Below are positions 15,821 through 60,474 of a stretch of DNA of 61,901 nt, piece after piece. The notes below the pieces were generated by a model. It made no database searches, had not been told where the DNA came from, and saw only the letters and a program-made list of their open reading frames with translations. The DNA lies in IMG/VR virus record IMGVR_UViG_3300046171_000186, positions 1-61,901 of that record, one strand, 5' to 3'. Within the stretch, counting starts at the first letter, position 1. Every line of letters begins with the position of its first letter. The position numbers were made by a program, and so were the translations under genes. The stretch comes from a virus. Taxonomy: Duplodnaviria; Caudoviricetes.

Positions 15821-15825
15821 CAACA

Positions 15826-15855
15826 AACCTATCAGCAATCTGTTTTGACTGTCAA
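15826..15855 (-). promoter_or_regulatory. Major early promoter
   Basis: A-tract (UP-like), then TTGACA-N18-TAGGTT with an extended -10 TG; TTGACAGTCAA palindrome. Confidence 0.6.
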
Positions 15856-27394: not shown

Positions 27395-28397
27395 GCGACT
27401 ATTACAAGATACAGATAATCGAAGATGGTCTGACGCTGAAATCAATGACTACCTCTTTGATGCTCAACACGAATTCGTCCGCCTCACTGGCTATCCCCTC
27501 TTAACCACCAACGTAGATCTTCAGGGGTTGGTTGCTGAGTATGATGTACCAACCGACCTGATGGATATTCAACGAGCACGGGTACGCAACCGTGCTGTTG
27601 AAATTCCTATTATCTCGCCTACCGTTCTCGACGAATCCTCTACTTTCTTAAACGAATCGGTTGATGCCGATTGGAGATCTCAGACAGGGCCAATCCGGGC
27701 TGTTGTCTTGGATCATCAGTCCGCTTCTAAATTTAGGCTCTATCCAATTCCTGCTGGCAACATTGTCAGTACGGTCACCGCTTCTTTTGACGCTACAACT
27801 ACAACGATCACTGTTTCAGATGCATCCGATCTAGCAGTCGGGATGTATGTTGGTGGGAATACCAATATTCCTGAAAAGACAGCAATTGCTTCGATCAGCG
27901 GAACAACAATCACCCTGACAAAAACCACAACCAACACTGGTGCGGTATCGAATGCATCCATCACGTTTGTATCGTCTAACGTCTTCAGTAATTATCTTTT
28001 ACAGGTTCCAACTACCGATTTGGACGCAATTAGTGGAACCGACATCTTATATGATTCTAGTGGGTTTTTTCAGGGTACTATCGTAGTTTTACCGTCTATT
28101 GAACTGCAAGGAACAAGGAACCCACCGAGAGATGCCCTGCAAACATTAGCCAATGTAGCAGGAGGAACAGACGTTCCCATTATAGGCTCTAGATTCCACG
28201 AAGCATTGGTATTTGGTGCAGTTGAACGGGCGTACTTAAAAGAAAACGAACTTCGTAATGTTCAGAAAAGCAGTGCTTTCCGAGAGAGATTCCTGCAGTT
28301 CGTTGCCGAAGCACGACGAGAAGAGCATGAGAATAGAATCCGCAGAGTAGGAGGAGCAAACCGAGTACGGATGAAAGTCAGTAGGAGGTGGGTATGA
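27357..28397 (+). CDS. Head-tail adaptor / tail tubular protein A-like
   Basis: LRTRVERLLQD....RWSDAEINDYL, FRLYPIP, FHEALVFGA..RAYLKE. Confidence 0.8.
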   Translation: MSLNLGQLRTRVERLLQDTDNRRWSDAEINDYLFDAQHEFVRLTGYPLLTTNVDLQGLVAEYDVPTDLMDIQRARVRNRAVEIPIISPTVLDESSTFLNESVDADWRSQTGPIRAVVLDHQSASKFRLYPIPAGNIVSTVTASFDATTTTITVSDASDLAVGMYVGGNTNIPEKTAIASISGTTITLTKTTTNTGAVSNASITFVSSNVFSNYLLQVPTTDLDAISGTDILYDSSGFFQGTIVVLPSIELQGTRNPPRDALQTLANVAGGTDVPIIGSRFHEALVFGAVERAYLKENELRNVQKSSAFRERFLQFVAEARREEHENRIRRVGGANRVRMKVSRRWV

Positions 28398-38824: not shown

Positions 38825-41352
38825 ATGGCAAAAGCCCGACTAGTTGATTTCCGAGGTGGAATCAATCAAAAAATATCGCCCCACATGATCGGTGACACGC
38901 AAGCTCAAGAAGCGAAGAATGTCGATCTGTCTGCCGTGCGGCTGGAAGGTATGTCAAATCCAGTGCCGAATGATCTAGGAGTACTTGCTAATGAACTGCG
39001 AAAAACCTACGGAGAATTCTTTTATGACACGGGAGACTCACGCACACAACGGTGGATCACGACTGATCCGAACCATACCGGACAATTAAACGGTTCCTTC
39101 GCATATCCGGGTTGGGACTGTCAGTATGTCACCAACAGTACAGATTTTGTAGTCTGGAATAAAGATCTCTACGTTGCCCGAATGAATGCTTCGGGCAACG
39201 ATACCTTGATTCGCATTGTAGATGTTGACCTACCGTCAGGTCAGACTACTGCCGATCCAATCATGTATGAATATGCGCTAGCTTTTGATCCTCCAGCCGC
39301 AGTTGATCTGAATGTTAATTACTATGATGACATCGGAGTTTATACGACAGATGGTGGACGGAAGCTTTACTATGACGAGTTTCGTGAGACAGCATACCGA
39401 TCCGGTACGGTTGAAGAAGCACGGTCACCAGCAAGAGGGGTAAACTGGGCAGTAAATCGAAATTTTGACAGTCTATCTGATTCTGGCTATTACCTCCGAG
39501 CAGTACGGAATTATCAAGGAATCCCTGTTGAAAGTAACACGGCAACCAAAGCCGAAGTAGTTGGTGGCTCTTTTGTAAACGGTCTAAACAATACTCCTAA
39601 TCTTTTGACGTTTGACATCACTGCACCCTCGGATTCGTCTGTAGCAGAGGTGGGTACTATGTCGTTGATCGGTTATCGGTTGTATCGGAATGATAACCTC
39701 TCACGCAATGTTTCTTTGGGCTTGATTTACCCTGAGAACGTTTCGGCTCATTTAGTATCAATAGCATATACTACAAATGTTTTTCTATATTTAAGTGGTT
39801 TGGAAAATGGCGCAAACTATCGGGTCAAGTTCTGGGGATGGTCAGGTGTATCTTTAGCTGCAGGAAGCCATCGTACAAAGCCAACATCAATCTTTCAGGA
39901 TCATACGAATATACAAATATAACCAATAACCAGATACAAGTTCAACTGTACGCTCAAGATAACTTTGACTTTAGCAGTGGTTCTCATTTTCCGTTACTTG
40001 GTGGTTTTGACCTGTGGTTGGAAAAAGAAGTGATGACAGACCTTTGGGCTGTTGCTGGATGTGTTTCCTTTTGGAAAGGGGATACTGCTTCTAATGGCTC
40101 AACTCTATCTTCTTCTTTGTCTGGGACAAATTGGACAGCAGGAGGTCCGGGTCAAGAGCATCCGGTTTACTCCTTTATTGACTGTTTTGCGTCAGGATTA
40201 TCATCAGGTTACATCACCAGCAACCAAGATAAGACAGCACCTCCAAACAGTTTAAAGTTTTTAGCAGAGTGGAATAACTTCTTCTTTGGGGTAGGTTCTG
40301 AATACACCAGTGCAGATCGTTACGGTGATAATATAAACAAGAAAGATAGTTTTCTTTTTGTCTCTGACTACAACAACCCACGGCACTGGCCTTTAGATGG
40401 TTATGTAGAATTCCCAGACTCCATCACAGGTATCTACCCGTATCGTGATGCCATGATCGTTTTTACTCGCAGAGCAGTTTACCGAGTGTTTGGTAGTCGT
40501 GCGAATCAAATGCGAAAAGTTCAAGTCAACACGATTGAAGGATTACCACCGAATTATCATAAAACAATTCAGATGCTAGGTAGTTATTTAATCTGGGTGT
40601 CTACGAAAGGAATCTGTTTGTATGATGGAAACTCTGTAACCAATTTAACCAGAGGACGTTTTGGTGACGATCCGTTAAGTGGAGTCGCACCAGCCGACTC
40701 AGCAGTGTACGAAGGAAAGTATTATTTATTGCTGATGAATTTAGGTGGGTTCATCATTGATTTTAATTTAGAAGGTTTTCCGATTATAGAGGTAACGAAT
40801 TTTACTTATGGAACTAATGATCCTGTAGATCTTTCCCAATATACAGGTTCGTTACAAAATCCAGTTTTAGAATATATACCGTCTAAACATCAATTATATT
40901 TAGGGTATTATTTTTCAACTTCTGTAACAGCAAGCACTGCTATTTTAGAAGGTTACGACATTGAAAATAACCCGTACCAAACAACTTCGATAGCATCTAC
41001 TACGAATACGAAAAGACCGTGGGTTTACCGTACCCGTTCTTTTGATGGCGGAAGCTTTGGTGCAATCAAGCTTGTGCGAAACGTAACGATCAATGGCTAT
41101 GGTTATGGGAAAGTCACGATCCGAATAGACGGTACAACCGTAGTTAATCAACAAACAGTCGGTTCTTACACAAGTTGGGGTCAGAAACCGGAAGATGCTA
41201 CCCCGATTACTGAGCCAACCAGAGTTTATTTACCGGAAACTGTCGCAGGAAACCCGTTTGGATTACCTGCTGGGGATGTCTGGGATGTGGAATTAGAATG
41301 GGTGGGAACTGTGGATTGGATTGAAACTGAATACGAAATATTGAGTACCTGA
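38825..41352 (+). CDS. Tail tubular protein B / stabilisation protein, split by a probable indel near 39868
   Basis: N-terminal DFRGGINQKISP..AQEAKNVD; C-terminal beta-propeller-like FVSD.NNP.HWP, ITGI, VFT, W.S.KGICLYDG. Confidence 0.7.
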
Positions 41353-46733: not shown

Positions 46734-49700
46734 ATGGACGAAGCTTTACGAGGTGGACTGCCTGACCGTGAGTACGCAAAACAGTTACTGAAGAGAATCC
46801 GTGAACAGTACCGCAAAGGAGACTCGACGTACCGGGATTCAGATTTTCAACTCCGTACCCTGCTGAAACCTTTTGGCCTGAACGAAGCCCAGACCAATTC
46901 AATCGTATCCAATACCCTTGGGACATCCTACAATGTAGATACGGTAACTACAGGACGAGAAGGGGGTCTACTCAATACGTTAGGGGCCTATGTCCCGGTG
47001 GCCCCAGTAGACTACCTTTCCCAAGTAGCCAAAGGTGTACCCGAACAGTTTGGAAATTTTGGTCCACAAGTAGAAAAATCTCTGGCAAGTATCGGTCTGT
47101 CGATGACTGAAGCCGACCCAGATCCTGCTTACATGGCCCAGAGACAACCGGGGTTAGATCGGACCTCTGACAGCCGATTGCTCCAGAACACATTGAGTCT
47201 CCTTCCGGGTACTCCGAACGATGCTGATGCCTTTCGAGAATCCGCTCGAAACATCGAGAATTACATCAGCACAAACTTTGACACTCTAAAGAACAAACTT
47301 CGGTCTTTTGGAGGTATGGTCCAGAGTTGGGCTGAAGAGAACATCCCAACCTTTGAACTTCCCGGATACGACCCGGAATCCGCCCAGTTAGCCCAAGAGA
47401 GGCAGGAACGCAAAAACAACTTAGCCGACCCCCAGTTTAGACGACAAGAACTCCAACAAGTATTTGATAGAGCCTCTAAGGAAATAGAGGCAAACCCCTT
47501 ACCGTTCCCTCAGACAGCTTTTGAACGTGGTGCAGCAAGTCTAGGGGGTTCAATGCCTTCTTATGCGACAATGGCTCTTGCTCCGTTTGACCCTATAAAG
47601 TTACCGACAATCCTGTTGTCCAATGCTGTAGCAGGGCGAATGGTAGCCGGGGAAGCAGTTGAAGGAGTTGCCCAAGACGATGTCTGGCTGGAGATGTCGC
47701 AGAACATGACCGATGCTCAGAAACAAGAAGCACTATCATACATCAACCCTATTGTTAACTTTGAGGCGTACAATACCCGGACCGCAACCGAACTTGCTGC
47801 CGCAGGATCAGATGCCTTGTCTATGTTGCCTATCGGAGGTTTACCCACTCGACTAGGTCTAGACTTGATGGGGGGTGGTGCCAGTGAATTGATTGACTTT
47901 GACTTGGCAGGACGGGCCAGACGTAGGGGACTCCGGGCCTACGCCCAGAAGATGAACTTACCGATTAAGGACGATCCAAGGTTGCAATTGGTCAACCGTG
48001 GGGACTATGCCAAGGCATATCCTGCCCAAGCACAGGAAGCCTTCCAGACAGGAATCGTGATGTCTGGGGCAGCTTCGACTCCTACCACCTTAGTTGATTC
48101 GTTGTTTACGAATTACCGAAACCGACAGCCTCGAGATAATCAAAATCCTAATCAGAACCCCGATCAGATCCAAGCACTGACCAACACGGTGCTCAATAAG
48201 TTAAAGACTCTAAACAAAAAAGATCCGGAGCAAGTCCGAAGCTACCTTGAAAACCCGATCACCGAAGACGTAGTCCGGAACATTCAAGCGAAGAGTGATG
48301 CTGGACAGGCCCTATCTAAGGATGAAATCGAGGTAGCCAAACGGCACAATGAAATCGACACTCCGATCTTAGCGGCACCCGAAGCTACTCCGACAGATAC
48401 GGCACCCGATGCTCTTGCCGAAGGAGTGGCCCGAGAAGGAGAATACTACCAACGATTGCAGGAGAATGCTGCCCGAGTAGAGACTGTACCCACGGACTCA
48501 CTCCAAGATATTACCCGTCAAACTTATCCCGTCCAAGAAAACATATCACAGACGGATGCTGTTGCTTCCCAATGGGATCGGGCTAATAAGGCTCAAAGAT
48601 CTGACAAGTGGTTTGAGGGAGCAAATGCAAATGAAGATGTTGTTAAAGCATGGGATTCTATACGAAGTGAGGCAAGCACAATAGGTGGTCATGGAATGGA
48701 TAAAGCACTTACGCTAAGTCAAGGGCTTAAAAATCTCCGTACACTTTTAAAAGATGGAATTGACTATAGTGTCAATCCTGACACCGGACTCCGTAGGCAG
48801 TTTTTTACTGCGCCTTTGACGGTAACTGCCCAAGGGACAGGTGCTGGGGCAGGAACTGCAAGTGGTACGGCTTATACCGATGGGCCGTTTATTATTGTTT
48901 TTAGAGAAGGCTCATCCGGTAACCCTTCTATCAATGATGTTGCAGGAATCCTAGTTAATGAGGCTCACGCTGAGATTGCTCCTCTACTCCAAGCAGAATA
49001 CCCAAATTTAGTTATTCGTAGTTATGGTCAAATACAAGATGTAGTTGCCGCAGCAAAAACTATGCGGAAAACACCTGATGATTCCAACTCAAGGATCTTA
49101 CAGTCTGCTGGTCGACAGCCTAGTCTACCGGGTCTGGAAGAAGCACCACCTACTCCACAAGATCCTCGTTTTGAGCCTCTAACCTTTACGACAGACCGAG
49201 CACGATCCAAAGTAGAACAACAAGCGTTGCAGGACCGGGAAGCCCGGATGAAGCAGGAGGAAGAACAAAGAACGCTGAATCAGTTCTATGAAGACATTTC
49301 TGAAGACAGTCTGTTTTCAACCTTTGATCAAACTGAAGAAACCGATCTGGGTACAGTCCAGACTCCTCGAGATGAGTACGAATCTGCCGTAGCCTACGAA
49401 GATGCAATTCAACGACAGACCCAACAACTTGAAGACATCCGTAAGCTACAGCAGGACACTAAGACAATCCAAAAAGCCCGAGAAGCTGCCGAGAAAAGAC
49501 AAGAGGCTCTGATCAAGGCAGACCAACGGATTGCTGCACGAGACCTTGCCGCTGAAGACAAACAGAGAATTCAGGAGAAACTTGCGGCAGACAAACTGGC
49601 AAACCAGCAAAGACTAGCAGAAATCGCTGATATTCAACGTGGCTTGGACCAACGAGTCAAGGAAGCCAAGGCTACTCAGGTCACTGCAAAAGAGGAACTA

Positions 49701-52700
49701 CGAATTCAACAGCAAGATGCTCTGGAAGGCATGAACGAAGGTGCCCGGCTAGCACAACAACGAAGACTTCAAGAACAGGCAAACCAACAAGCCTTGATCG
49801 ATCAAGAGTTACGTTTACTAGATGAAAACGTAGCTAAAGCTGCATCTACACAAATTACTGCACGACAAGCGGAACGTGCCCGGCAGGAAGAACTGCTAAC
49901 ATCGAAGCAGGAAGAAGTAGATACTCAGATTGCCGAGGGTGCCCTGACACCTCGAGAGGCAACGATTGCCCAAGAAGAACAAGCCCGTGCTGAAGAGGAC
50001 CGGATTCTTCAAGAGATCGACCAGATGGAAGCAGACGAACGATCTCAATCACAAGCAGAAGAGGACCTTGCCGTAGAACAGGTTGCTGATCAGGAGAACC
50101 GAAAGCGTTTTGACCGTCTATTAGTAAACCTTTCGGATATGCAAACCCAACGGGACACGGAGCAACGTGTTCAAGCTATCTTTGGAGATCTCGAGACTTC
50201 CGAGAGGTCAACGGTTGCCGGGGGTGCTACTGTCAATCCGAACACTCCTCGTGGTGCCCAGATCCTGAAGCAACGAGAATTGGAGGTTCTAAGGGACGCA
50301 ATGGTAGCCGAGTTCCCGGGGGTGTCTCAAGTCGATGTAGTGGAGACTGTCGAGCAAGCCCGGGAGATGTTACCGGAAGGGGCCGAATTGGCAGACGACA
50401 CCGAAGGGTTTGCCTTCCGAGATGCCGAAGGCAATCCGAGGATTGTGCTGGTGGGTACCAACATCGAGAACAAGCAGGTTATCGAAGGGCAGATCGGAAA
50501 TGCTCTGGAGAATGCTGTTCGGGATGGAGTCCGGATCTTCTTCCACGAATCCTTGGGCCATGACGGGTTACGTCAGGCATTCGGAGATAACGAAGCTGCC
50601 CTGAATGACTTTACTGCCAGACTGTACGAAGCCCGTGAAGATGAGATTAACGACTGGGGTAGTCGCAGGTATTCTGAAGGTGACTGGTCAAAAATGAATG
50701 ATTCGCTAAAAGCGGAAGAGTGGCTGGTCCAGAACTTCACAGAAGAAGGAATTGCTCCGTCTGGAATCTTGGATTCGATCCGGGTTCTGTTCGGAAGCGA
50801 GTTCAATGATGCGTCGATCCGCAAACAAATGAACGCAATCCAGAACGCACTACGAAAAGGACGAAAGCCGAAGTTTACCTTGCGAACTCCTCAAGGTGCC
50901 CGGGCGAATGTCGGAGAAGAGATTCCTGTCGAAGAGATGGAGATCGAGATTCCCGGTCAGGATGAGCAAGCTGCACCGGAAGCCGAAGCGCAAGAACAAT
51001 CTCAAGGCCCCACAACAACCCCCATTGAACCTGATCCTGCTTTAGACAGTTTAATCAGATCACTTTACGAGAAAGGAATTACTCCTCCGTCCAAGTCAAT
51101 GGTTAGTGCCCGGAAAAAGAAATTCTTTATGGAGTTTCCTTTCCTGAAAAATACTGATCTGAACAGTGTTGATGCAGACCTAATCCAAGCAAGAATCAAA
51201 GCAGCACAAGACGAGATCGATTCGATTGTAAACCCGGTCAACTTGGAGATGATCAACAACCCGGCTACTCGTCGTGCAAGGGAACTGACTGCCGCACAAA
51301 AGAATAGAGTTCGAGGGTATTTAGCAGAGATCCAAGCTTTGCAAGGTATTCTTGGTTCTGCTCAAGTTGCACCTGTAGCACAGACAGAATCTACACCAGA
51401 ACGTACTTCTGAAACAACAGTTGAAGTAAATGGGCAGCAAGTAGAGCCAGAAAGTGTTCTACCTCAAAAATCACCGACTACACCTGTCCAAGATACCACA
51501 GAAAGTACATCCACGGATGTACAACCGATAGCGGAAGAGACACCGGAAGAAGTTGCTGATGCTGGGCCAGCAATCAGGATGAGTGCAGGTAGACCTAGTC
51601 TGCAGGAAGTAAAACAATTAGAGGTTGAAAAGAAAGCTGCACCGGGCTACCAGACCCCCAGACAGCTACAAGACTCTAGTACGGCTAGAGAGGAACTTGC
51701 CAACGAAGCAAAGAAGTACATTGCAGGAGAAATTGAATACGAGGACTTCCAAGCTGCCGTTCAGCGTTTAAATCCGATTCAGGCTCTAGGAGAGAAATAC
51801 GATATCCCCGGAGGAGTACCTGCTCCTGCAACGAATGAAGAGATTCAAGATGCTGTTGGTGTCAAGAGTCAGGGTAAAGTCCTTGGTGTAGATACAGAGA
51901 TTGCAGATGGGACTGATGTTGGTTTGAGGCTAGATATAAACGCTTATCAAAACAAAGATGTCTGGGTACCCACGATCCATGATGGAAGTGTTAAAGGGAC
52001 TCAGGGTAAAGTTCTGGCCTATGCTCCGGTCGCTAGGGTATTGGGGCATTCTTCAGACGGTAAAGTTAGCTTCGAGTCAAACCCGGATGCTGCTTTGAAT
52101 ATTGCTTCTGGCAAGATCAACAAGACTACTATCGCACGAGTCTTTGGGTCTTTCCAGAATGCCAACCCGGAGGAACTCTTTAATCAGGCTCAAGAATACA
52201 TTGCCAATCCGAAGCAAGGAAATGATGTCTGGGTTGAAATTGGGATGGACCCCACCAGAGGATCGTTCTTCTACGATAAAGCCAATGGTGACCCTGTTCT
52301 GACTGCTGACGAAGTAATTCAAGTTGGTGCTCTCGTTGTTGCGAAAAATCCTGAGTACGGCAACGTCAACAACATCAGAACGGTAGGTAGGACTAAGGGC
52401 ATTCCTGCAGGATTACGTTTTAGTAGCGGACGACGAAAGAAGCTAATCTCTGAACTGCCGATTTCCGGTATTCTAAGTGGAACAGAAGATCTAGGTACAC
52501 AACCCGGAGACTTCTTCCGTAACTTAGGGTTACCTGTACGAACTAAAAAAGATGGGACGGTCAAACCATCGGTCAGTGATGTCGGTAGTAGCCTTGAGAA
52601 AAGATATCGAAAGATTACCGGAAATGTTCCGTTTGAAGATACCCCAGAGCAGAGAGACATAATTGCAGAAGCTTTAAATGCTGAAATTGAATACCAACTG

Positions 52701-55700
52701 CAACAGGATAACTCTGGTGTGGGGTGGTATGATGCTACGGTAGCTAAAGCCCTTAACCGTTATGCAATTATGCATCCGGAACTTGCAGATAATGCAGATG
52801 CCCAAACAGTATTTAAAGCTATTCTTGCAATTACTTCCCAAGGTGAAACTGTTCCTAAAAACGGAGACTACGCACACAAACTTTATAGCGAATACAAGAA
52901 GACAGGAAGAATCCCAACAACTTTTGAAGGAGGAAAAGAAGGTCCGATTGTCTTAAATAACCTTCAGTTTCTGCAGAAGTTGATCGATAAATACGGGGTA
53001 AAAGACGCAAATGAATTACTGCTTGCTAAAATGCCAGTACGAGATGTCAATAAACTTTCTGCACAATTTGGAAAAGCTGGAGTTGGTGGCGAACGGATGG
53101 ATACGGAACTGCTTGGTGCTGCAGCGTTCGGTCCAAAGATCGGTATCTTCTTCTCTAACCTTTCAGGCCAATATGACTTCCCTACCATTGATTTGTGGTT
53201 CCAAAGAACAATGGGCCGAATGCAAGGTCAACTGTTTGATTTCAAACCCGGTACAGATGAAAAGTATCGAAAGTTATTAAGAGACCATTGGGCCAAAAAT
53301 CCTAAGAACTTTACACCCTCTAAAACCGTTAAACAAATCCCTGAGGATGATTTATCACTTAACCTATGGGCAAAAGAAACTCTTAACGAATATGCAAAAC
53401 CAGTCCCAACAGGAAAATTCAAACCGGATGGAACGCCAATAAAACGGAGTTACCCCGTAGAGAAGAAAACGCTTGAGACAAATGCCGCAAAGAATATAAT
53501 TGAAAACCTAACAAAGTTAAAAGGTGCTCCTACGGGTGCAGATCGTATTTTAACTCGAGATGTGCTCCAACGCATTCAAGATAAGAGGAAGAAGAATAAT
53601 CAGGAGACCCTGACGGTTCCTGATATGCAAGCTGTCTTATGGTACTTAGAAAAAGATCTGTATACTGGTCAGGGTGCTGGAAACGTAACCGCAGAGAAAG
53701 CTGATTATGCTGATGCTGCAGAACAAGTCGTGGAGACCTATGGAAACAAAGAACAAAAAAGACAACTACAACGGGCCAGAATTTCCGGAAATGACCCCCG
53801 AGGAGATACAGGAGCAAGTAGCCAGAACACAGGCACTGACCCGGTCTCTGGACGAGAATCCGGAAATGTGGGACGAACTGCTGAAACGAGTCCAGTCCGG
53901 AAATCAGACAGTAGGGCTTCCAGCCTCTCAGGATATGGAGACGGAGGAAGACGGAGTGCTGGAAGAGTCACGAAGGCGTTGGAAGGTACGCCATCCACAA
54001 AGGGGCCGAACGGAACAAGGGTCCAAGGTCCGATCCAAGAATTAGTCGATGTAGCAGAAAAATATGCTGCAGCTAATGGCATCAACTATAAACGACAAGC
54101 TCAGTATGTAGAAGTAGATGAAGAACTTGCAGGACGGATTGCTGATGCCTACGCAGAAATGGAACATACTCCGAATGATCCTACCGTAAAAGCTGCATAC
54201 CGTGACCTGATTGATCAGACTCGTGCCCAATACGAAGCCTTAGTGGCAGATGGATTTGAGTTTACCTTTTTTGATGGGGAAACAGATCCATACGAGGGCA
54301 GACCTTTCCGGGCTATGAATGATTTAAGATTCAATAAACGGATGGCTGTTTATGGAACCTATGATGGCTACGGAACAGAAGGAATAACTAGAGGAGATTT
54401 AGAAGACAACCCAATGCTAGAAGATACTGGCCTTCAATGGGAAGACCAGAATGGTGAAATGCGCCCGGTGATGGCAAACGATTTATTCCGGGCAGTTCAC
54501 GATGCATTTGGGCATGGACTTGAAGGGGCCGGGTTTAGAGCAAGAGGGGAAGAAAATGCGTGGCAAGCTCACGCCCGTTTATTCACAGGTCCAGCTTTAG
54601 GCGCAATCACGAGTGAAACACGAGGGCAAAACTCGTGGCTAAACTACGGGCCTTACGGAGAGACCAACCGGACTGCTGGTCTAGAAGATACGGTCTTTGC
54701 TGATCAGAAGACAGGCTTGATGCCTGAGTGGACTTGGCAAGAAGGCAAGGCCCCAGATATGCCTGAAGACACTCAAGAAGAAAACGTTAACGATGGTGCG
54801 AACTTGACAGGCACCCGGTTCTCTGCCGGTCGACGACGACCTCTCCAGAACAACCCCGGAGGACGTGCCAAGAAAGAGTTCGGAGCACTCAAGGCTCTAC
54901 GCAAACTCGATCATTTCTTTGACCATAAAAGCAACCTGCCAGAACGGGAAGCGTATGAACTGCTGACCCAGAAGGCCCGTGGAGAGATGACCAACTACAT
55001 TGAAATTGGTCACGAACTCGGAGACATTTTCTTAAAGGCGAAAGAGAATGAACAAGCTGCCATCTACAACTACCTAACCGAACGCAATGCGAACGCTAAT
55101 CTAGTCCCTGACAGAAAAGTTAGAGGTTCTAACAAAACCCTTCGACAAGCTGCCGTACAGGCCAAGCAGGACATTATTCAGATCGGAGAAGATCTGGTTC
55201 GTCTAGGAATGCTCGATCCGGATGCATACGCCAACCGAAAGGGTAAGTATCTACCTCGTGTCTATTTAAAGTATCTATTCAGTGAAGACCACCAGAAGAT
55301 CTTGTCTACAGGCGGATCGCTGAAGATGTCGGACTTAGGGTATCTAAAGAAACGTAAAGACGTAGATGCTCTAGTACGCAATCTGGTCCTTGGGGAGATC
55401 AAGTCCCCGGGGTACTTGGTCAGCAAGACCCTAATGCAGTCTGGGCAGGACATTGCCCGGATGCAGTTCCTGAAGGACCTCTCCGGAAATCAAGAATGGG
55501 TTCTGCCTGAAAGCTATATCAATGTTAGCTATGCCAATGAAATCGAAGGTATCCTACAGGCCAACCCGGCACTTCGGCAGCAACTGCTGAACGAAGGACT
55601 CCCTCCAGCCGCACGACAGACTGCCACAAGACGGGTGACCCCAGAGTATCTTGCGGCAGAAGCTAGACGACTTCGAGAACAAGTTTTACCGTCTAAGAAA

Positions 55701-57374
55701 GAAGGATCTGCCCAGAAGGAGTTGGTCCGGAGAATGATCGAAGTGTTGGATCAGAAGGTCTCTCAGGCCCGAACCAATCAGGAATACGATCCTGAAAACT
55801 ACACGCAACTTCCGGATACCTCCCGGTACGGAGACCTTCGAGGTGCGATTGTCCGTAACGAAATCTACGATGACCTAGTCGGATCTCAGGAGTTATTTAC
55901 CCAGTCGGGTATGGAACGAGGGCTGAACTACCTGACCTCCCTAATGAAGTGGGGCCTGACTGCAGCGAACCCGGCAGTCTGGGCGAATAACCTACGATCC
56001 AACACGGCAATGATGCATTTTGCTGGGTTGCCTTTCCATCGTAGTTTCGACTATCGCTTTAGAGCCTTAAAACAGATGCTGACCAACGGTAGTCGCTATC
56101 AGGCGTTCAAGGAGCAAGGACTAACCCTGTCCACCTTTGCGGCAGACGAACTTGGTCGGATGGAGACGAGACTGGCCCAATCGTTATCCCCGGAAGACAA
56201 AAAGATCATCGGGCAACCTCTACGCTATTCGTTGCCTGTTTTGACTGCAGAAAGATTAGGCTCTTTGATCTACAACGCCTTTGGGGATTTCTATCAGGGC
56301 ATGGAGGTCATGGACAAGCTAGCCTTGGGCATGTACCTAGAAGATCACGGCCCTAGCCTTGGGGCACCTTTTGCGAACAATCGGAAGATGACGACCGAAG
56401 CAGCAATGCGAGAGGCAAACAAGGCGTTGTTTGATTACACAGATGTTCCTGACTGGTTGCGTCGAAGTCGCAGAAGCTTACTAGGTGCCCCGTTTTTAAC
56501 GTGGACCTACAAGGCAGCACCGTACTTGACAAAGATGGCTGGTGACCCGAAGAAGCTTCTCAGGGCCGCAACATGGTACGGTGGCCTGTACACCTTGATG
56601 GCAATGCGAGAGGCAGAACTAGATGATGAAGAACATGATGCGTATTATAATGGTCTGCAAGACTGGCTAGCGAAACGTCAGTTGTTCTCGATCCCCCTAC
56701 CACAAAAGGACGAGAACGGAATGGTTCAGACAGAGGACTACACGATGTTTGCGCCTCATGCCTTCCTGATGAATGCTGCCGCAGATGTTCTACCGGGTGG
56801 ACGTTTCAGTGCGTTGGATGTTGCCAAAGACCTTGGCTTTGCATCCCATCCGTTGCTAGAGTCTACAATGGAATTGATCTTCAATAAGGACTCTTTCACC
56901 GGACAGCCGATCTATCGCAAGACGGATACATCGACCCAGATGGCAGACAAGATACGGGAGCACTACATGGACAACTTGCTCCCACAGTTTATCGCACCAA
57001 ACGGGTGGACTACCCGGATGATCGAGTTGTCTTCAGAGAATCCAAATGTGTTTGGACCCTCTAGTGTTTTGGACCGACAGGGGAACCCTACCCGGACGTT
57101 AGGCCAACAGACACAACGGGTAGTACCGTTCATGCCGAATGTTTACCCGTCAGATTTACGCAAGGGATTAAAATACGGAAGGCAGGATATTCTTCGTTCT
57201 ATTCAGGCTCTAGCAAAAGAGTATTCGACGAACCGAAGAAAGTATCGAGGAGATAAAGAAGCGTTAGCGGAGTTGAAAGCGGAGTACGATGCAGAAAGGG
57301 CAAGACTACAAGGGTTGCTGCGAGAATTTCCTACGGTAGGACAACTACCCAGATTTGAAGAGTATGCAGAGTAA
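46734..57374 (+). CDS. Giant polyvalent internal virion protein (3546 aa)
   Basis: Coiled coils, HESLGH zincin motif, GPKIG/TIDLW/QAVLW module, HDAFGH module, LPD38-like C-terminus (HPLLES.MEL.FNKDSFTGQPI). Confidence 0.85.
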   Translation: MDEALRGGLPDREYAKQLLKRIREQYRKGDSTYRDSDFQLRTLLKPFGLNEAQTNSIVSNTLGTSYNVDTVTTGREGGLLNTLGAYVPVAPVDYLSQVAKGVPEQFGNFGPQVEKSLASIGLSMTEADPDPAYMAQRQPGLDRTSDSRLLQNTLSLLPGTPNDADAFRESARNIENYISTNFDTLKNKLRSFGGMVQSWAEENIPTFELPGYDPESAQLAQERQERKNNLADPQFRRQELQQVFDRASKEIEANPLPFPQTAFERGAASLGGSMPSYATMALAPFDPIKLPTILLSNAVAGRMVAGEAVEGVAQDDVWLEMSQNMTDAQKQEALSYINPIVNFEAYNTRTATELAAAGSDALSMLPIGGLPTRLGLDLMGGGASELIDFDLAGRARRRGLRAYAQKMNLPIKDDPRLQLVNRGDYAKAYPAQAQEAFQTGIVMSGAASTPTTLVDSLFTNYRNRQPRDNQNPNQNPDQIQALTNTVLNKLKTLNKKDPEQVRSYLENPITEDVVRNIQAKSDAGQALSKDEIEVAKRHNEIDTPILAAPEATPTDTAPDALAEGVAREGEYYQRLQENAARVETVPTDSLQDITRQTYPVQENISQTDAVASQWDRANKAQRSDKWFEGANANEDVVKAWDSIRSEASTIGGHGMDKALTLSQGLKNLRTLLKDGIDYSVNPDTGLRRQFFTAPLTVTAQGTGAGAGTASGTAYTDGPFIIVFREGSSGNPSINDVAGILVNEAHAEIAPLLQAEYPNLVIRSYGQIQDVVAAAKTMRKTPDDSNSRILQSAGRQPSLPGLEEAPPTPQDPRFEPLTFTTDRARSKVEQQALQDREARMKQEEEQRTLNQFYEDISEDSLFSTFDQTEETDLGTVQTPRDEYESAVAYEDAIQRQTQQLEDIRKLQQDTKTIQKAREAAEKRQEALIKADQRIAARDLAAEDKQRIQEKLAADKLANQQRLAEIADIQRGLDQRVKEAKATQVTAKEELRIQQQDALEGMNEGARLAQQRRLQEQANQQALIDQELRLLDENVAKAASTQITARQAERARQEELLTSKQEEVDTQIAEGALTPREATIAQEEQARAEEDRILQEIDQMEADERSQSQAEEDLAVEQVADQENRKRFDRLLVNLSDMQTQRDTEQRVQAIFGDLETSERSTVAGGATVNPNTPRGAQILKQRELEVLRDAMVAEFPGVSQVDVVETVEQAREMLPEGAELADDTEGFAFRDAEGNPRIVLVGTNIENKQVIEGQIGNALENAVRDGVRIFFHESLGHDGLRQAFGDNEAALNDFTARLYEAREDEINDWGSRRYSEGDWSKMNDSLKAEEWLVQNFTEEGIAPSGILDSIRVLFGSEFNDASIRKQMNAIQNALRKGRKPKFTLRTPQGARANVGEEIPVEEMEIEIPGQDEQAAPEAEAQEQSQGPTTTPIEPDPALDSLIRSLYEKGITPPSKSMVSARKKKFFMEFPFLKNTDLNSVDADLIQARIKAAQDEIDSIVNPVNLEMINNPATRRARELTAAQKNRVRGYLAEIQALQGILGSAQVAPVAQTESTPERTSETTVEVNGQQVEPESVLPQKSPTTPVQDTTESTSTDVQPIAEETPEEVADAGPAIRMSAGRPSLQEVKQLEVEKKAAPGYQTPRQLQDSSTAREELANEAKKYIAGEIEYEDFQAAVQRLNPIQALGEKYDIPGGVPAPATNEEIQDAVGVKSQGKVLGVDTEIADGTDVGLRLDINAYQNKDVWVPTIHDGSVKGTQGKVLAYAPVARVLGHSSDGKVSFESNPDAALNIASGKINKTTIARVFGSFQNANPEELFNQAQEYIANPKQGNDVWVEIGMDPTRGSFFYDKANGDPVLTADEVIQVGALVVAKNPEYGNVNNIRTVGRTKGIPAGLRFSSGRRKKLISELPISGILSGTEDLGTQPGDFFRNLGLPVRTKKDGTVKPSVSDVGSSLEKRYRKITGNVPFEDTPEQRDIIAEALNAEIEYQLQQDNSGVGWYDATVAKALNRYAIMHPELADNADAQTVFKAILAITSQGETVPKNGDYAHKLYSEYKKTGRIPTTFEGGKEGPIVLNNLQFLQKLIDKYGVKDANELLLAKMPVRDVNKLSAQFGKAGVGGERMDTELLGAAAFGPKIGIFFSNLSGQYDFPTIDLWFQRTMGRMQGQLFDFKPGTDEKYRKLLRDHWAKNPKNFTPSKTVKQIPEDDLSLNLWAKETLNEYAKPVPTGKFKPDGTPIKRSYPVEKKTLETNAAKNIIENLTKLKGAPTGADRILTRDVLQRIQDKRKKNNQETLTVPDMQAVLWYLEKDLYTGQGAGNVTAEKADYADAAEQVVETYGNKEQKRQLQRARISGNDPRGDTGASSQNTGTDPVSGRESGNVGRTAETSPVRKSDSRASSLSGYGDGGRRSAGRVTKALEGTPSTKGPNGTRVQGPIQELVDVAEKYAAANGINYKRQAQYVEVDEELAGRIADAYAEMEHTPNDPTVKAAYRDLIDQTRAQYEALVADGFEFTFFDGETDPYEGRPFRAMNDLRFNKRMAVYGTYDGYGTEGITRGDLEDNPMLEDTGLQWEDQNGEMRPVMANDLFRAVHDAFGHGLEGAGFRARGEENAWQAHARLFTGPALGAITSETRGQNSWLNYGPYGETNRTAGLEDTVFADQKTGLMPEWTWQEGKAPDMPEDTQEENVNDGANLTGTRFSAGRRRPLQNNPGGRAKKEFGALKALRKLDHFFDHKSNLPEREAYELLTQKARGEMTNYIEIGHELGDIFLKAKENEQAAIYNYLTERNANANLVPDRKVRGSNKTLRQAAVQAKQDIIQIGEDLVRLGMLDPDAYANRKGKYLPRVYLKYLFSEDHQKILSTGGSLKMSDLGYLKKRKDVDALVRNLVLGEIKSPGYLVSKTLMQSGQDIARMQFLKDLSGNQEWVLPESYINVSYANEIEGILQANPALRQQLLNEGLPPAARQTATRRVTPEYLAAEARRLREQVLPSKKEGSAQKELVRRMIEVLDQKVSQARTNQEYDPENYTQLPDTSRYGDLRGAIVRNEIYDDLVGSQELFTQSGMERGLNYLTSLMKWGLTAANPAVWANNLRSNTAMMHFAGLPFHRSFDYRFRALKQMLTNGSRYQAFKEQGLTLSTFAADELGRMETRLAQSLSPEDKKIIGQPLRYSLPVLTAERLGSLIYNAFGDFYQGMEVMDKLALGMYLEDHGPSLGAPFANNRKMTTEAAMREANKALFDYTDVPDWLRRSRRSLLGAPFLTWTYKAAPYLTKMAGDPKKLLRAATWYGGLYTLMAMREAELDDEEHDAYYNGLQDWLAKRQLFSIPLPQKDENGMVQTEDYTMFAPHAFLMNAAADVLPGGRFSALDVAKDLGFASHPLLESTMELIFNKDSFTGQPIYRKTDTSTQMADKIREHYMDNLLPQFIAPNGWTTRMIELSSENPNVFGPSSVLDRQGNPTRTLGQQTQRVVPFMPNVYPSDLRKGLKYGRQDILRSIQALAKEYSTNRRKYRGDKEALAELKAEYDAERARLQGLLREFPTVGQLPRFEEYAE
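53740..54045 (+). CDS. Candidate overprinted gene nested in the +1 frame of the giant gene (101 aa)
   Basis: GGAGA RBS before ATG 53740; acidic, amphipathic product, while the host frame is a G/S/R-rich linker. Confidence 0.5.
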   Translation: METKNKKDNYNGPEFPEMTPEEIQEQVARTQALTRSLDENPEMWDELLKRVQSGNQTVGLPASQDMETEEDGVLEESRRRWKVRHPQRGRTEQGSKVRSKN

Positions 57375-58065: not shown

Positions 58066-60474
58066 TTACGCAAACTTACCATACAGCACATTAGACTTCT
58101 CTGGTTCATCTTCTGTGTCTAACAAAGTGATTCCTTCACATGTTAATCTTCGAGAACCATCTTTGTCCCGTGGACGACTTGAAGTCACACCGTACTTCTT
58201 CAAAAGGTCTAAGAATTGACCTTGGGTGCCGATAGGTTCATTAACCTGAGTACAATACAGTTTCCAAGATGCCCAAAGCTTGGAAGTTTCGGTCTGAGCT
58301 TTTGGGCTTAGTTTACAGTTATCCATAATCCAGAGGGAAACCACATCGTTCTCACCAAAGTACTCGTCGGTAGCGATCTTGACTGGATGAGGAATCGGAG
58401 GGAGAAGATGTTGGTGCCATTCCACTGCACCCTTTATGATCCAAGCAAGAATGCCCGGGCTTTCTGCATCAAGCTTGTCTTTCAGCTTTGGATCTTTCTG
58501 GTCTTCCTGCAATTCTAGGTTAAAAGGAATCAGACGGGTCCTACGCTTGATCGCCTCATCAAGATACTCGATCTTGGGTTTACTGTTACTTGCAATAAGC
58601 AAGGTATGAGTTGGGACAAATTCAAACGGGTCCTTATATAGATTCTTCGCATTGATGAGATCCCCTCCAGTCAACCCCTTCAACTCCCCTAAATCCCAGA
58701 CCGCTCGTTGTTTAAACTCGCTTGCAGCAACCAACCTTCTTCCATGTAGCTTGAAAAGAAAATGATCGGTATTCTTCCGGGTCTCACAAAACAAATCCCC
58801 CGGAACACTACAGGCATAGTCCCCTAGTACTTTTAAGAGTACGTTCACAAAGGTAGACTTTCCGTTTCCTCCCTTCCCATGTAGTAGAAAGAACACATGT
58901 TCTGACGTGTGCCCGGTCGCAGCATACCCGGCATAACGATGTAGGTATGTCAGCACTTCCGGATTTCCTTCCGTTATCTGGTTTAGAAATTTATCCCAAA
59001 CAGGGGTTTTCATTTCAAAATCGGGAGCAATTTCTGTCTTTTTCAGACAGATCTCTGTAGTGTCAAACTCGGTCTCTTCCAGTAAGGCTCCTGTCTTCAG
59101 GCAGTACTTTCCTTTGCTTGTGTTTAAAATATTTGGATCGTTATCCAAGGTATGAGCCTCTACCATAATACCTCCTTCTGCGGTTCTAAGATCTCGGTTT
59201 ATTTTAGCTAACCAATCTGGGTCGGAAAGCTTGTTGTGTTTTTGTGTCACCCATTCTTCTTCTTGATCACGACCCAACTCTGAAAGTTGTGGGACAATAT
59301 TCTTTTTAGCATAATCTTTAATAAGGGTTGCGGTCTTGTATCCCTTCTTATCTATTACCCACCCAGAGTCGTTCTTCCAGATAAACTGTTCCCACTCCGG
59401 AATGTATTTAAACCGTCCAAAGTAAAAACGTTTAAACTCTTCAGTAATCCAAGAAGGGGAGACTAAAGCCCAAGGGTTTTCGCTAATTTGGGCAACCGGA
59501 CCACTAGCCAAAAGGTGAGATATTGATTGGGCGTAGTTAAACCCGTGCTGTGCAGCTTGCCGAAAGAACCAGTCCGCCCCAACTCGATAAGGAGGTTTGT
59601 AGCCATTCCAGACAGTGTCCGTCTCGACAACATTATACGGCTTGTGTTCTGCCTTTGCGGAAAACGTATGAAACAGACCCCGTCCATACTCTAGGTCGTC
59701 CTGTGTTGCTGCGTGAAGGGATGCACCAATCCGAACCCATTCATCCCAACCAAAACAGGTTGATTCATTGTTCGGTAGAAATTCCAAAGCTTCGGACAAC
59801 AAGCTTGGCTCTTTAGCAATCAGCAGTTCATGTGGGCTACCCTCTCGGTCACCAGAGTATGATGAGGTCTCGGATATCTTAATACCATACAGGCTAAGAC
59901 GTTCGACAACAGCCTCGAGGAATCTCCAGATCTTTTCATTGTCGATTACGGTCAAGGACATTGGATCGGGAATTCCCTGATCGATCTGATAGGGTTGCTT
60001 TGTCACTGGGTGGATACCCTCCACGACATATTGCTGACCAGACCCAAGGATCTCAACCTGCATCAAATCATCATCCAGCTTGAACTTGAGTGCTTTCTTC
60101 GTGATTTCATCTTCCGTTGCATACATCAGCAACTGTTTTGGTGCTTTTCCTACCCGAATTGGTGCTTCCCCAAGGATGTGTAAAGCGATGTCTCGTATTT
60201 CGTTACTCAGAGCTTCGTCATGGACATCTATGTCTATTCCGGGGTAACGCCTTGCCAAGAGTCCTACAGAGGCATGGTGGCGGTCGTAGAGATCCACTTC
60301 TGCTGGACTTATCTTAAAAGTAGTCCACCCTTCCAAACCAGTCCAAATTCCACTACCATTTGGGGTACCCGGAACCTTCCCTAGTCGCTGAGAAGGAATC
60401 CCAATAGCTTCTGCATCTGGAGGAACGATGGGTAGAATCCCTTCATACCCTTTATTTAACCAGTCTACTAACAT
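58066..60474 (-). CDS. P4-family primase-helicase (prim-pol, PriCT-2, D5_N, SF3 helicase)
   Basis: GIDIDV, QYVVEGIHP, WVRIGASLH, HGKGGNGKSTF, GRRLVAASE, LKGLTGGD, AIKRR. Confidence 0.92.
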   Translation of the reverse strand: MLVDWLNKGYEGILPIVPPDAEAIGIPSQRLGKVPGTPNGSGIWTGLEGWTTFKISPAEVDLYDRHHASVGLLARRYPGIDIDVHDEALSNEIRDIALHILGEAPIRVGKAPKQLLMYATEDEITKKALKFKLDDDLMQVEILGSGQQYVVEGIHPVTKQPYQIDQGIPDPMSLTVIDNEKIWRFLEAVVERLSLYGIKISETSSYSGDREGSPHELLIAKEPSLLSEALEFLPNNESTCFGWDEWVRIGASLHAATQDDLEYGRGLFHTFSAKAEHKPYNVVETDTVWNGYKPPYRVGADWFFRQAAQHGFNYAQSISHLLASGPVAQISENPWALVSPSWITEEFKRFYFGRFKYIPEWEQFIWKNDSGWVIDKKGYKTATLIKDYAKKNIVPQLSELGRDQEEEWVTQKHNKLSDPDWLAKINRDLRTAEGGIMVEAHTLDNDPNILNTSKGKYCLKTGALLEETEFDTTEICLKKTEIAPDFEMKTPVWDKFLNQITEGNPEVLTYLHRYAGYAATGHTSEHVFFLLHGKGGNGKSTFVNVLLKVLGDYACSVPGDLFCETRKNTDHFLFKLHGRRLVAASEFKQRAVWDLGELKGLTGGDLINAKNLYKDPFEFVPTHTLLIASNSKPKIEYLDEAIKRRTRLIPFNLELQEDQKDPKLKDKLDAESPGILAWIIKGAVEWHQHLLPPIPHPVKIATDEYFGENDVVSLWIMDNCKLSPKAQTETSKLWASWKLYCTQVNEPIGTQGQFLDLLKKYGVTSSRPRDKDGSRRLTCEGITLLDTEDEPEKSNVLYGKFA

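Follow-up and report, generated by a model that had tools for sequence, protein, structure and literature searches.

Recurrent Linker Motifs and an Embedded HExxGH Domain in a Giant Modular Phage Protein: A Candidate Self-Processing Polyvalent Protein

Introduction

The DNA analysed here, a stretch of 61,901 nucleotides (hereafter, the window), comes from an uncultured, short-tailed phage that we also describe as temperate. One of its genes encodes a giant protein in which the same short peptide recurs at five positions, and one region of this protein resembles a metallopeptidase. Do the five peptides mark the sites at which a chain of modules is cut by its own peptidase domain, or do they serve the uncut chain in some other way? 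Metallopeptidase domains have been proposed to process polyvalent proteins by autoproteolysis (Iyer, Burroughs, Anand, de Souza, Aravind, 2017; PMC5512222), and from 2017 onward this self-cutting idea had no defined sites to test. For polyvalent proteins, we found no description of a junction or cleavage motif in the literature: in the main text of PMC5512222 the strings “linker,” “boundar,” and “interdomain” occur 0 times and “cleavage site” occurs in the reference list only (its supplementary alignments are outside the scope of this count), and “proteoly” and “polyvalent” occur 0 times in the available text of the review PMC8954989.

Genomic position and modules of the giant protein

The giant ORF is preceded on its 5' side by genes for the terminase, the portal, the major head protein, an internal virion protein, and an SU10-type adaptor. 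Its product is one very large multi-domain polypeptide, with 3546 aa, six segments, and two confidently modelled domains. The ORF and its main parts, apart from the peptidase-like domain, are as follows.

46734..57374, + strand: giant ORF, 3,546 aa, closing the structural arm as its last gene
46734..48521, + strand: module 1, aa 1-596, N-terminal and common to the close clade; defined by BLASTP blocks against the relatives P0002-P0005; found in 4/120 homologues
48522..49049, + strand: insert, aa 597-772, missing in P0002-P0006 in the alignment; no motif on its N-terminal side
49221..50183, + strand: Q/E/A/R-rich spacer, aa ~830-1150, probably helical as judged by composition and low-hydrophobicity segments
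51681..52385, + strand: module 3, aa ~1650-1884, a confident alpha/beta domain with pLDDT mostly 85-97
52500..53801, + strand: module 4, aa ~1923-2356, mostly helical in the AlphaFold model; found in 70/120 homologues
53979..54788, + strand: module 5, aa ~2416-2685, phrog_3170; the most widespread module, in 118/120 homologues
54834..57371, + strand: module 6, aa 2701-3546, C-terminal and clade-defining, common to 42 long proteins

The six homology-defined segments differ strongly in spread, being present in 4, 5, 12, 70, 118, and 7 of 120 homologues, respectively. In IMG/VR, at least 573 stretches are related to module 3, at least 541 to module 4 when the alignment is the query (module 4 as a single-protein query found no related loci), and 317 to module 5, while module 6 retrieved 3 weak loci. 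No complete gene was found that encodes module 6 alone; 12 shorter proteins, mostly on short contigs, show no clear split at a motif.

Megablast of the giant ORF against phage records gave 0 matches, and none of the six segments matched a Pfam family at E <= 1, four rows at chance level excepted. The PHROGs search yielded 0 families for five of the six segments, the sole match being that of module 5 to phrog_3170, a family of unknown function. For modules 3 and 4, modelled together as two domains, Foldseek had no match at E <= 0.001, which leaves a glycosylase-like identity for module 4 unsupported. The clusters returned by the protein atlas were unnamed; LPD23 is found on 18% of one of them, the one at rank 27. 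Modules 3-5 are also present in proteins bearing PF18760, PF18834, PF18857, and PF18823 (ART-PolyVal, LPD22, LPD38, InPase). No lytic transglycosylase was found in the giant protein, and no 19-aa stretch comes up to a Kyte-Doolittle value of 1.3, so that nothing in it looks membrane-like.

The window protein resembles known polyvalent proteins in being a giant chain of shuffled, unrelated modules that is encoded in the morphogenesis arm and contains an embedded metallopeptidase-like domain; in contrast to them, it matches no Pfam family, and its domain has the rare HExxGH in place of HExxH. As with the internal core proteins of the T7 gp16 type, its gene comes last, is the largest, and follows genes for other internal virion proteins, and in MW202722 and MW805363 proteins of 3209 and 2986 aa with modules 4 and 5 occupy the gp16 position; however, it has no sequence match to the gp16 families in PHROGs. 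The ORF lies at the place in which T7-like phages have the gene for their largest internal (ejected) core protein, a position that supports packaging of the giant protein in the virion. A precedent is phi24B gp47, a protein of 2811 aa with LPD domains and a MuF-C peptidase that was detected by virion proteomics, according to the available part of the preprint (bioRxiv 10.64898/2026.04.10.717836). The window protein would be packaged and delivered with the DNA in the manner of polyvalent proteins.

Five junction motifs

All five hexamers listed in the first-pass annotation are present in the translated ORF, and so are the residues said to follow the first two.

49098..49115, + strand: motif 1, LQSAGR followed by QPSL, aa 789-794, in the low-hydrophobicity segment aa 771-850
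51576..51593, + strand: motif 2, RMSAGR followed by PSL, aa 1615-1620
52416..52433, + strand: motif 3, RFSSGR, aa 1895-1900
53949..53966, + strand: motif 4, RRSAGR, a weak member, aa 2406-2411, overlapping the G/R-rich leader of module 5
54816..54833, + strand: motif 5, RFSAGR, aa 2695-2700, directly before the C-terminal module 6

Chance does not account for this number of copies. Against the 5 observed S[AS]GR, 20,000 composition-preserving shuffles of the protein gave a mean of 0.137 and a maximum of 4, and 0/20,000 reached 5. Among 176 stop-to-stop frames of at least 80 aa in the window (30,858 aa in total), S[AS]GR occurs outside the giant ORF in two frames of 80-81 aa only, one overlapping a ribonucleotide-reductase-like gene out of frame and the other antisense to the giant ORF. 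No other likely gene of the window contains it: the motif is missing from the virion genes, those for scaffold and head included. Since it is absent from the scaffold and head proteins, it is not a general site of head maturation. The shorter pattern R[FYM]S also has three occurrences within folded regions of the giant protein (aa 1312, 3164, and 3357), which we count against self-cleavage.

The motifs had been described as lying at module boundaries, and indeed all five fall between modules. The homology blocks in alignments with homologues stop short of every motif. Segments of low hydrophobicity make up 34.9% of the protein and hold 4/5 motifs, and the linkers are G-, S-, and R-rich. AlphaFold modelling covered aa 1590-2440 (851 residues, 199 of them with pLDDT under 50). 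The three motifs in this range fall within or border on low-confidence stretches (pLDDT<50) that separate domains with pLDDT 80-97: motif 2 at the end of such a stretch, motif 3 (model residues 306-311) within the stretch 298-333, and motif 4 within the stretch aa 2357-2431.

The copies differ in their codons, with Ser encoded by TCT or AGT and Arg by CGA or AGA. In the 10 pairs of 18-nt copies, 6-13/18 bases are identical, and the longest exact run in register is 3-7 nt (78 nt compared). The absence of any shared run >7 nt agrees with the initial suggestion of conservation at the protein level rather than recent DNA duplication. The same tendency is seen between genomes: at the junction preceding module 6, in the window and 11 metagenome loci, Arg is encoded by CGG, AGG, or CGA, Ser by TCT or TCC, and the last Arg by CGA or CGT, with the residues unchanged. 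Judged by codon choice, selection on the motif acts at the protein level.

Conservation of the motifs and module exchange in relatives

The motif was initially defined by SAGR, but this is not its conserved core. In the wider relatives it is [R/S/L]-[F/Y/M]-S that persists, with following residues that are private to each lineage. This pattern is retained in relatives that have the C-terminal module in common, to identities as low as about 27%, and over the same range the F-S core is kept at the site of motif 5. At the site of motif 2, the relatives have RMSSGR (P0002), RMSAGR (P0003), and RMSGGR (P0005); the 18 nt of motif 3 are identical in L256, L257, and L260. Two of the five, motifs 1 and 4, fit the pattern less well. 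Motif 1 lacks the R-[F/M] part, is kept in P0002 and P0003 only, and lies upstream of the peptidase-like domain. Motif 4 reads RRSDGR in P0002 and P0003, the two closest relatives, and the G/R-rich leader that it overlaps is conserved in 118 other module 5 proteins. The upstream location of motif 1, its missing R-[F/M] part, and the change of motif 4 in the closest relatives are all counted against self-cleavage.

Domains are shuffled between relatives in a mosaic fashion. Module 3 is absent from P0002 and P0003, and the missing part lies exactly between motifs 2 and 3. At this site P0002 has ..RMSSGR followed by RKKLISELP, and P0003 has ..RMSAGRQFSSGRRRKLISELP, keeping both motifs back to back. 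Two further loci, L255 and L261, contain a tandem of two RFSSGR copies separated by 7 aa, a motif “scar” like that of P0003. In P0004 the modules after module 3 differ from those of the window protein, and in L001 and L002 the module order is different. Thus, the proposal that modules are swapped at the motifs is borne out for module 3, whose gain or loss is bounded by motifs in the closest relatives, but not for the insert aa 597-772, which has no motif on its N-terminal side and is counted against self-cleavage.

Other lineages repeat motifs of their own at several junctions: RFSS[GKA]R (three times in P0004), R[YF]SSEA (three times in P0123), SFS[SA]N[RQ] (three times in P0126), and LFS[KE] (three times in P0006). 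For each of 8 protein-motif pairs, which were picked after being seen and include P0004, P0126, and P0006, though not P0123, 0/2000 shuffles reach the observed count. Over 162 proteins, R[FY]S occurs 167 times vs. 104.4 +/- 9.6 expected, the highest excess among 13 tripeptide patterns (the next, R[FY]N, is 1.42-fold), and the mean number of 4-mers repeated at least three times is 4.32 vs. 2.86 in shuffles, a noisy measure whose striking cases were singled out by visual inspection before being tested. Distant homologues supplied 1833 non-redundant low-hydrophobicity stretches, in which FS was counted 121 times vs. 90 expected, RYS 20 vs. 5.2, and LEQ 47 vs. 21; these signals are weak, and hence we claim no single universal motif. 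A motif of the [FYL]S, YMP, or FEQ type lies within 21 residues downstream of the module 5 end in 13/49 distinct flanks, and a motif of the listed classes precedes module 4 in 20/60 flanks, both being raw counts without a shuffle control. Finally, the density of [LFY]xQ[GSA] per 1000 aa has a median of 3.0 in proteins with HE[ST]GH vs. 1.5-1.8 in those with the other two zincin classes (Mann-Whitney p about 5e-5, which is not a true probability as the proteins are related).

The HExxGH peptidase-like domain

The candidate protease lies between the helical spacer and motif 2.

50235..50858, + strand: HExxGH peptidase-like domain, aa ~1168-1375, delimited in the AlphaFold model
50544..50561, + strand: HESLGH, aa 1271-1276; HE..[GA]H is present in 16/24 relatives listed
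50718..50720, + strand: Glu 1329, nearly invariant, located 53 residues past His 1276 as the second E of AEEW

In the model of this domain (mean pLDDT 63 overall, residues 25-232 mostly at 66-87), strands 56-60, 82-86, and 92-97 are followed by a long helix, 114-139, that bears HESLGH. Conserved among the relatives are the motif HE..[GA]H..GL and the Glu 53 residues downstream, so that Glu 1329 is a candidate third metal ligand by sequence. The domain is rare: a search of 1.84 billion proteins gave 10 hits at E <= 0.001.

HESLGH is present at aa 1271 as first noted, but the spacing is H-E-x-x-x-H: the active-site helix carries no classical HExxH, the second His being placed one residue later, and the predicted fold of the domain is weakly zincin-like. 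The best PDB structural matches are small zincin-like proteins at Z 5.3-6.0, all weak, among them 3e11_B (Z 6.0, in the range that the structure-comparison tool calls common; rmsd 2.8, 93 residues aligned), 3cmn_A (Z 5.8), and 2ejq_B (Z 5.5). Lower matches include HtpX, PprI, Wss1, and the DNA-protein-crosslink repair protease 6mdx. Foldseek gave no match at E <= 0.001 (best E 0.29), and comparison with Pfam, PHROG, and PDB sequences gave no family match, the PDB rows being at chance level (E 0.4 or more). We count the spacing, the lack of a sequence family match, the negative Foldseek result, and a Z score in the common range against self-cleavage. A predicted complex of the domain with the 51-residue motif 5 linker scored 0.02 in a run without controls and counts neither way.

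Dipeptidyl peptidase III (family M49) is a two-lobed protein of about 700 aa that has HEXXGH followed about 52 residues later by EEXR(K)AE(D). The window domain likewise has HESLGH and a conserved EE[W/F] 53 residues downstream, but it is about 200 aa long and its second motif is just EE[W/F], so that the likeness is one of motif alone. With the domain as query, no DPP III chain was among the structural matches listed, and there was no sequence match to it.

Proposed self-processing and its alternatives

The explanation that we prefer, with confidence somewhat short of even, is that the giant ORF encodes a polyvalent protein whose linker motif is the cleavage signal of its own HExxGH metallopeptidase-like domain. 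The product would be a chain of unrelated, swappable modules, joined by disordered linkers that bear a short linear motif with the core [R]-[F/M]-S, here extended to R-[F/M]-S-[A/S]-G-R. This motif would act as both recognition and cleavage signal for the domain at aa ~1168-1375, which would be an active peptidase and would cut the chain into modules either in the filled head or, post-ejection, in the host. Cleavage at the motifs may then release the “six effectors” of the first-pass annotation. Zincins commonly accept a hydrophobic residue just after the cut; hence, speculatively, the cut may lie between R and F/M/Y.

The closest analogy of working is with RNA viruses, whose polyproteins carry a protease that cleaves them at a short motif of their own, e.g., the Q|G sites of 3C-type enzymes. 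The window protein is similar in having a lineage-private linker motif, uniform within the chain, together with a protease-like domain; as far as sequence can tell, the same short motif stands at the linker junctions, and cleavage by the embedded protease would complete the parallel. In contrast, the window belongs to a double-stranded DNA phage and the domain is metallopeptidase-like, not chymotrypsin-like, so that no kinship is implied. Among phages, T4 internal proteins are cut by the prohead protease. Another case is that of P1 DarA and DdrB, processed head-internal proteins as cited in the main text of Iyer et al. (PMC5512222). In both systems, proteins that go into the head are cleaved, either before or after they are packaged, and are delivered along with the DNA; unlike the arrangement proposed here, the cutting is done by a head-maturation protease or takes place a single time, and no gene for such a protease was found among the 24 other ORFs scanned.

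A rather unlikely alternative, though the strongest, is that the motif is a signal in a linker that stays uncut: a docking peptide for the head or portal, a pause or handle for threading, or a connector required for module swaps to be viable. The linker position, the protein-level conservation, and the private versions suit a binding motif equally well, and P0123 retains its three private motifs yet has no HE..[GA]H domain, which is also counted against self-cleavage. Moreover, some polyvalent proteins with such peptidase domains, i.e., N4 virion RNA polymerase, ArdC, and TraC1, are delivered uncut (Iyer et al., 2017; PMC5512222), and processing of the 2811-aa phi24B gp47 found in virions is not reported in the available part of the preprint (bioRxiv 10.64898/2026.04.10.717836). 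However, no partner can be named, the motif is in no other likely gene of the window, and in most of the clade the same chain includes a conserved metallopeptidase-like domain. Repeated lineage-private junction peptides are, besides, a known pattern of viral polyprotein cleavage sites.

That the motifs are cut by a host protease or another phage protein rather than by the embedded domain appears clearly improbable. The weak support for the zincin fold and the motifs of P0123 would fit it, and a small residue followed by Gly and Arg resembles the sites of trypsin-like proteases. On the other hand, no protease family was found among the 24 other ORFs scanned and no protease gene in the interval from the portal to the head gene, the scaffold and head proteins are free of the motif, and in the wider set the type of motif varies with that of the embedded zincin ([LFY]xQ[GSA] with HE[ST]GH). 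A last explanation, that the repeats are seams of DNA-level recombination or arise from the composition of the linkers, and do nothing as peptides, draws on module exchange at these sites and on the G/S/R-rich linkers, and is very improbable, being largely refuted at the sequence level by in-register sharing of <=7 nt, the use of both codon families for Ser and Arg, the shuffling result (0/20,000 with five copies), and synonymous changes with constant residues across relatives.

Implications for polyvalent proteins

If the domain of the preferred self-processing explanation is active, it would represent a new small metallopeptidase family. A wider and more doubtful reading is that the giant polyvalent proteins of dsDNA phages are true polyproteins, in which a lineage-private junction code co-evolves with the protein's own metallopeptidase and a module works once it is placed between two copies. 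The code proposed is R-[F/M]-S-[A/S]-G-R here, and RYSPGR, FSRK, [FY]SLR, R[FY]MP, SFSSNR, or hydrophobic-x-Q elsewhere. Some of the residues F, Y, L, and M are destabilising at the N-terminus in bacteria. If the cut precedes the aromatic residue, the freed modules would begin with F, Y, L, or M, and a short lifetime may thereby be built into the injected effectors.

Polyvalent proteins occur widely among phages, and a six-residue candidate site that occurs 3-5 times per chain with natural variants makes the idea of self-processing testable. If true, it would provide a rule for where modules start and end, and thereby assist the annotation and expression of many unknown modules. The motif also suggests how phages may gain new counter-defence cargo.

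Junction motifs and module boundaries

The giant ORF of the window (46734-57374, + strand; 3,546 residues) contains five copies of a short S[AS]GR motif, all exactly where the first-pass annotation had placed them:

LQSAGR, aa 789-794 (motif 1)
RMSAGR, aa 1615-1620 (motif 2)
RFSSGR, aa 1895-1900 (motif 3)
RRSAGR, aa 2406-2411 (motif 4)
RFSAGR, aa 2695-2700 (motif 5)

A mean of 0.137 copies was obtained in 20,000 shuffles, none of which reached five, and none of the window's other likely genes contains S[AS]GR. The copies differ in their codons, as had been stated, and form no DNA repeat: in pairwise comparison (ten pairs), 6-13 of the motif's 18 nt agree and the longest stretch of exact in-register identity within 78 nt is 3-7 nt, and both codon families are used for Ser as well as for Arg.

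Hydrophobicity, an AlphaFold model and the limits of homology blocks concur in placing the motifs between modules. Four of five lie within low-hydrophobicity stretches (34.9% of the chain), the exception being RFSSGR. The model of aa 1590-2440 (86 alignment rows, including IMG/VR relatives of modules 3 and 4) takes in motifs 2, 3, and 4; module 3 (aa ~1650-1884) is confident, with pLDDT mostly 85-97, and module 4 spans aa ~1923-2356. Stretches with pLDDT <50 cover aa 1590-1618, 1887-1922, and 2357-2431, so that RFSSGR and RRSAGR are predicted to fall within them, with RMSAGR at the end of the first. Homology blocks to other phage proteins (aa 1654-1872, 1945/1977-2342, 2432-2682, and 2734-3441) end before each motif. 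The six segments of the protein have 4, 5, 12, 70, 118, and 7 carriers, respectively, among 120 homologues. Two ORFs in alternative frames, one of 112 aa (53707-54045, +) and one of 115 aa (53738-54085, -), overlap the G/S/R-rich linker that joins modules 4 and 5; this linker is predicted to be disordered.

Conserved core and lineage-specific versions

A search with the C-terminal module 6 (aa 2701-3546) yielded 42 long proteins. The junction before this module reads RFSSGR, RFSSAR, RFSSA, RFSSEAR, [VAI]SFSS(N)R, LFSKPK, or LRFSRAIN, and the pattern persists down to ~27-32% identity; therefore the lasting core is [R/S/L]-[F/Y/M]-S, and not SAGR as first assumed. At the orthologous junction in the window and eleven metagenome loci, changes are synonymous and the residues unchanged (first Arg CGG/AGG/CGA; Ser TCT/TCC; last Arg CGA/CGT).

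The version specific to a lineage recurs at several junctions within one chain, with three copies each of R[FM]S[AS]GR in the window protein, RFSS[GKA]R in the homologue P0004, R[YF]SSEA in P0123, SFS[SA]N[RQ] in P0126, and LFS[KE] in P0006. For eight protein-motif pairs, picked after having been seen (including P0004, P0126, and P0006, not P0123), none of 2,000 shuffles reached any observed count. Two of the five sites of the window protein are weaker. LQSAGR is retained only in P0002 and P0003, the position of RRSAGR reads RRSDGR in the same two proteins, and RRSAGR overlaps a G/R-rich leader (GDGxGR...LAP) that stands ahead of module 5 in many of its 118 carriers.

Further polyvalent proteins of the homologue set have repeated junction peptides of their own.

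Repeated junction peptides in other polyvalent proteins (protein; peptide; copies)
P0116; R-YSPGR; 6
P0044; FSRK; 5
P0014; [FY]SLR; 4
P0082; [FY]MP, usually after R; 6
P0173; FSRG; 3 (protein with three HExxGH domain copies)
P0028; LSVR; 3
P0061; PLQSR; 3
P0039; TFNQ; 3

Across a set of 162 proteins, enrichment of R[FY]S reaches 1.6-fold (167 vs. 104.4 +/- 9.6), the top value of 13 tripeptide patterns tried. The motif class follows that of the embedded zincin: per 1000 residues, the median for [LFY]xQ[GSA] is 3.0 with HE[ST]GH vs. 1.5-1.8 in the other two classes (Mann-Whitney p 6e-5), and [FY]S..[RK] a median of 0.6 with HExxGH vs. 0.3 with HE[ST]GH (p 0.002), these p values not being true probabilities because the proteins are related. 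The signal does not extend to all proteins. Words counted without bias in the linkers of distant homologues give a weak signal, and by counts with no shuffle control a motif lies within 21 residues after module 5 in only 13/49 distinct flanks, and a motif of the listed classes precedes module 4 in 20/60. Three IMG/VR contigs (L093, L096, and L102) have the same order of modules 3 and 4 with F-K-Y-S-[LI] as the joint.

Gain and loss of modules

The nearest relatives are P0002 (96% identity), P0003 (93%), P0004 and P0005 (62-63%), and P0006 (45%). The claim that modules are gained and lost at the motifs holds for module 3, which is exactly motif-bounded. P0002 and P0003 lack it, with the break exactly at the motifs: P0002 reads ..AVRMSSGR/RKKLISELP across the gap, and P0003 reads ..AVRMSAGRQFSSGRRRKLISELP, two motifs remaining back to back. 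P0004 retains module 3 with its RFSSGR, but a different module comes next. The claim fails for an insert of ~176 residues (aa 597-772; window 48522-49049), absent from P0002-P0006, whose C-terminal end falls 17 residues short of LQSAGR and whose N-terminal edge bears no motif in the alignment with these relatives. Together with an additional stretch before motif 2 in P0002 and P0005, which has no motif of its own, this insert counts as evidence against a strict rule of motif-bounded swaps.

Two metagenome contigs, L255 and L261, have RFSSGR, seven residues, and RFSSGR again upstream of module 6. In both, the module 6 frame opens just past a stop (~290-300 and ~555-565, respectively) with no Met for ~100 residues, and the upstream ORF, in a different frame, terminates at ..HWPGVF; a frameshift, splitting of the gene, or misassembly could explain this arrangement, seen in two independent contigs.

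The 18 nt of RFSSGR after module 3 (window 52416-52433) are identical in the lineage of loci L256, L257, and L260, while module 6 is only 63% identical, which hints at a recent exchange of module 3. This module also occurs in large proteins encoded directly after the portal (loci L089, 5548-8532, and L090, 4138-8325; MW202701, Roseobacter phage CRP-9), and thus the same module serves both there and in proteins that close the structural arm. In many contigs of IMG/VR loci L171-L250, no other domain follows it in its protein, and a conserved tail of ~30 residues (..[YF]FK[RKH]GG[NS]VER..) closes the ORF.

The HExxGH domain

The embedded domain (aa ~1168-1375; HESLGH from aa 1271) has the spacing H-E-x-x-x-H; the pattern HE..[GA]H.GL is found in 16 of the 24 relatives listed, and a Glu 53 residues downstream (EE[W/F]) is nearly invariant. 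It is rare, since a search of 1.84 billion representatives gave no more than 10 proteins at E <= 0.001, and had no match among Pfam, PHROG, and PDB sequences. Its model (16 rows; mean pLDDT 63, core 66-87) has three strands followed by a long helix bearing HESLGH. Foldseek returned no match at E <= 0.001. The top VIA-align matches are small zincin-like proteins, 3e11_B (Z 6.0, rmsd 2.8, 93 aligned), 3cmn_A (5.8), and 2ejq_B (5.5), followed by YbeY, HtpX, PprI, Wss1, and a DNA-protein-crosslink repair protease (6mdx); for this tool, by its own note, Z values <8 may reflect no more than a common arrangement. Hence we call the domain metallopeptidase-like, a putative rather than a shown peptidase. 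HEXXGH with a second acidic motif ~52 residues on recalls dipeptidyl peptidase III, a likeness confined to the motif. In P0173 (2968 aa), three near-identical tandem copies of the domain carry ..RVLYHEALGHHGLR.. at aa 1658, 2095, and 2588.

Genomic context

The window spans an entire IMG/VR virus record (61,901 bases), linear and 69% complete by IMG/VR classification, and its gene set looks like that of a temperate short-tailed phage:

5342-6451, integrase
19958-21712, large terminase
21853-24174, portal
25237-26331, major head protein
27357-28397, SU10-type adaptor
39838-41352, internal virion protein
58066-60474, minus strand, primase-helicase
window's end, family A DNA polymerase fragment

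Positions 1-16000 also encode an SNF2-type helicase, a DUF2800/PD-(D/E)XK nuclease, DUF932, RusA, and a ribonucleotide-reductase-like fragment; with the integrase, these point to a temperate phage that has a replication arm of its own. The giant ORF ends the structural arm. Its modules 4 and 5 are shared with proteins of 3,209 and 2,986 residues in the GenBank podoviruses MW202722 and MW805363, encoded 3' of a "lysozyme" gene and 5' of the tail fibre, i.e., in the gene position of T7 gp16. From gene position, we infer that the giant protein is packed in the head. A precedent in support is the 2,811-residue polyvalent protein detected by proteomics in phi24B virions (bioRxiv 10.64898/2026.04.10.717836).

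Possible processing at the junctions

We propose that the giant protein is a polyprotein whose junctions would be cleaved by a protease reading the junction code, the likeliest cutter being the embedded HExxGH domain of the same chain. A short peptide in disordered linkers, selected at the protein level and serving as the point of module swaps, fits such cutting, as do the metallopeptidase-like domain conserved within that chain and the lack of any motif copy in the head or scaffold proteins of the window. Recurrence of one peptide at several junctions of a chain, with different peptides in different lineages, fits a protease that reads a code. Cutting by the HExxGH domain itself is tentative, at somewhat below an even chance. 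Zincins commonly prefer a hydrophobic residue just after the cut, and on that basis our guess would be a cut before the aromatic residue of the motif.

Alternatively, the peptide in these linkers could be a signal that stays uncut, which we consider rather unlikely beside the metallopeptidase-like domain of the same chain. Cutting at the motifs by another protease is improbable; no other protease gene was found among the 24 other ORFs scanned in the window, which again agrees with the proposed processing by the embedded domain. An artefact or a DNA-level seam, set beside the shuffles and the differing codons, can hardly be credited.

Autoproteolysis of polyvalent proteins was proposed by Iyer et al. 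(2017; PMC5512222), whose main text names no site or linker motif, and no junction or cleavage motif of these proteins was found in the literature searched. Polyvalent proteins are already known and the giant protein is one more of them; its junction code and its peptidase-like HExxGH domain are new forms within that kind.
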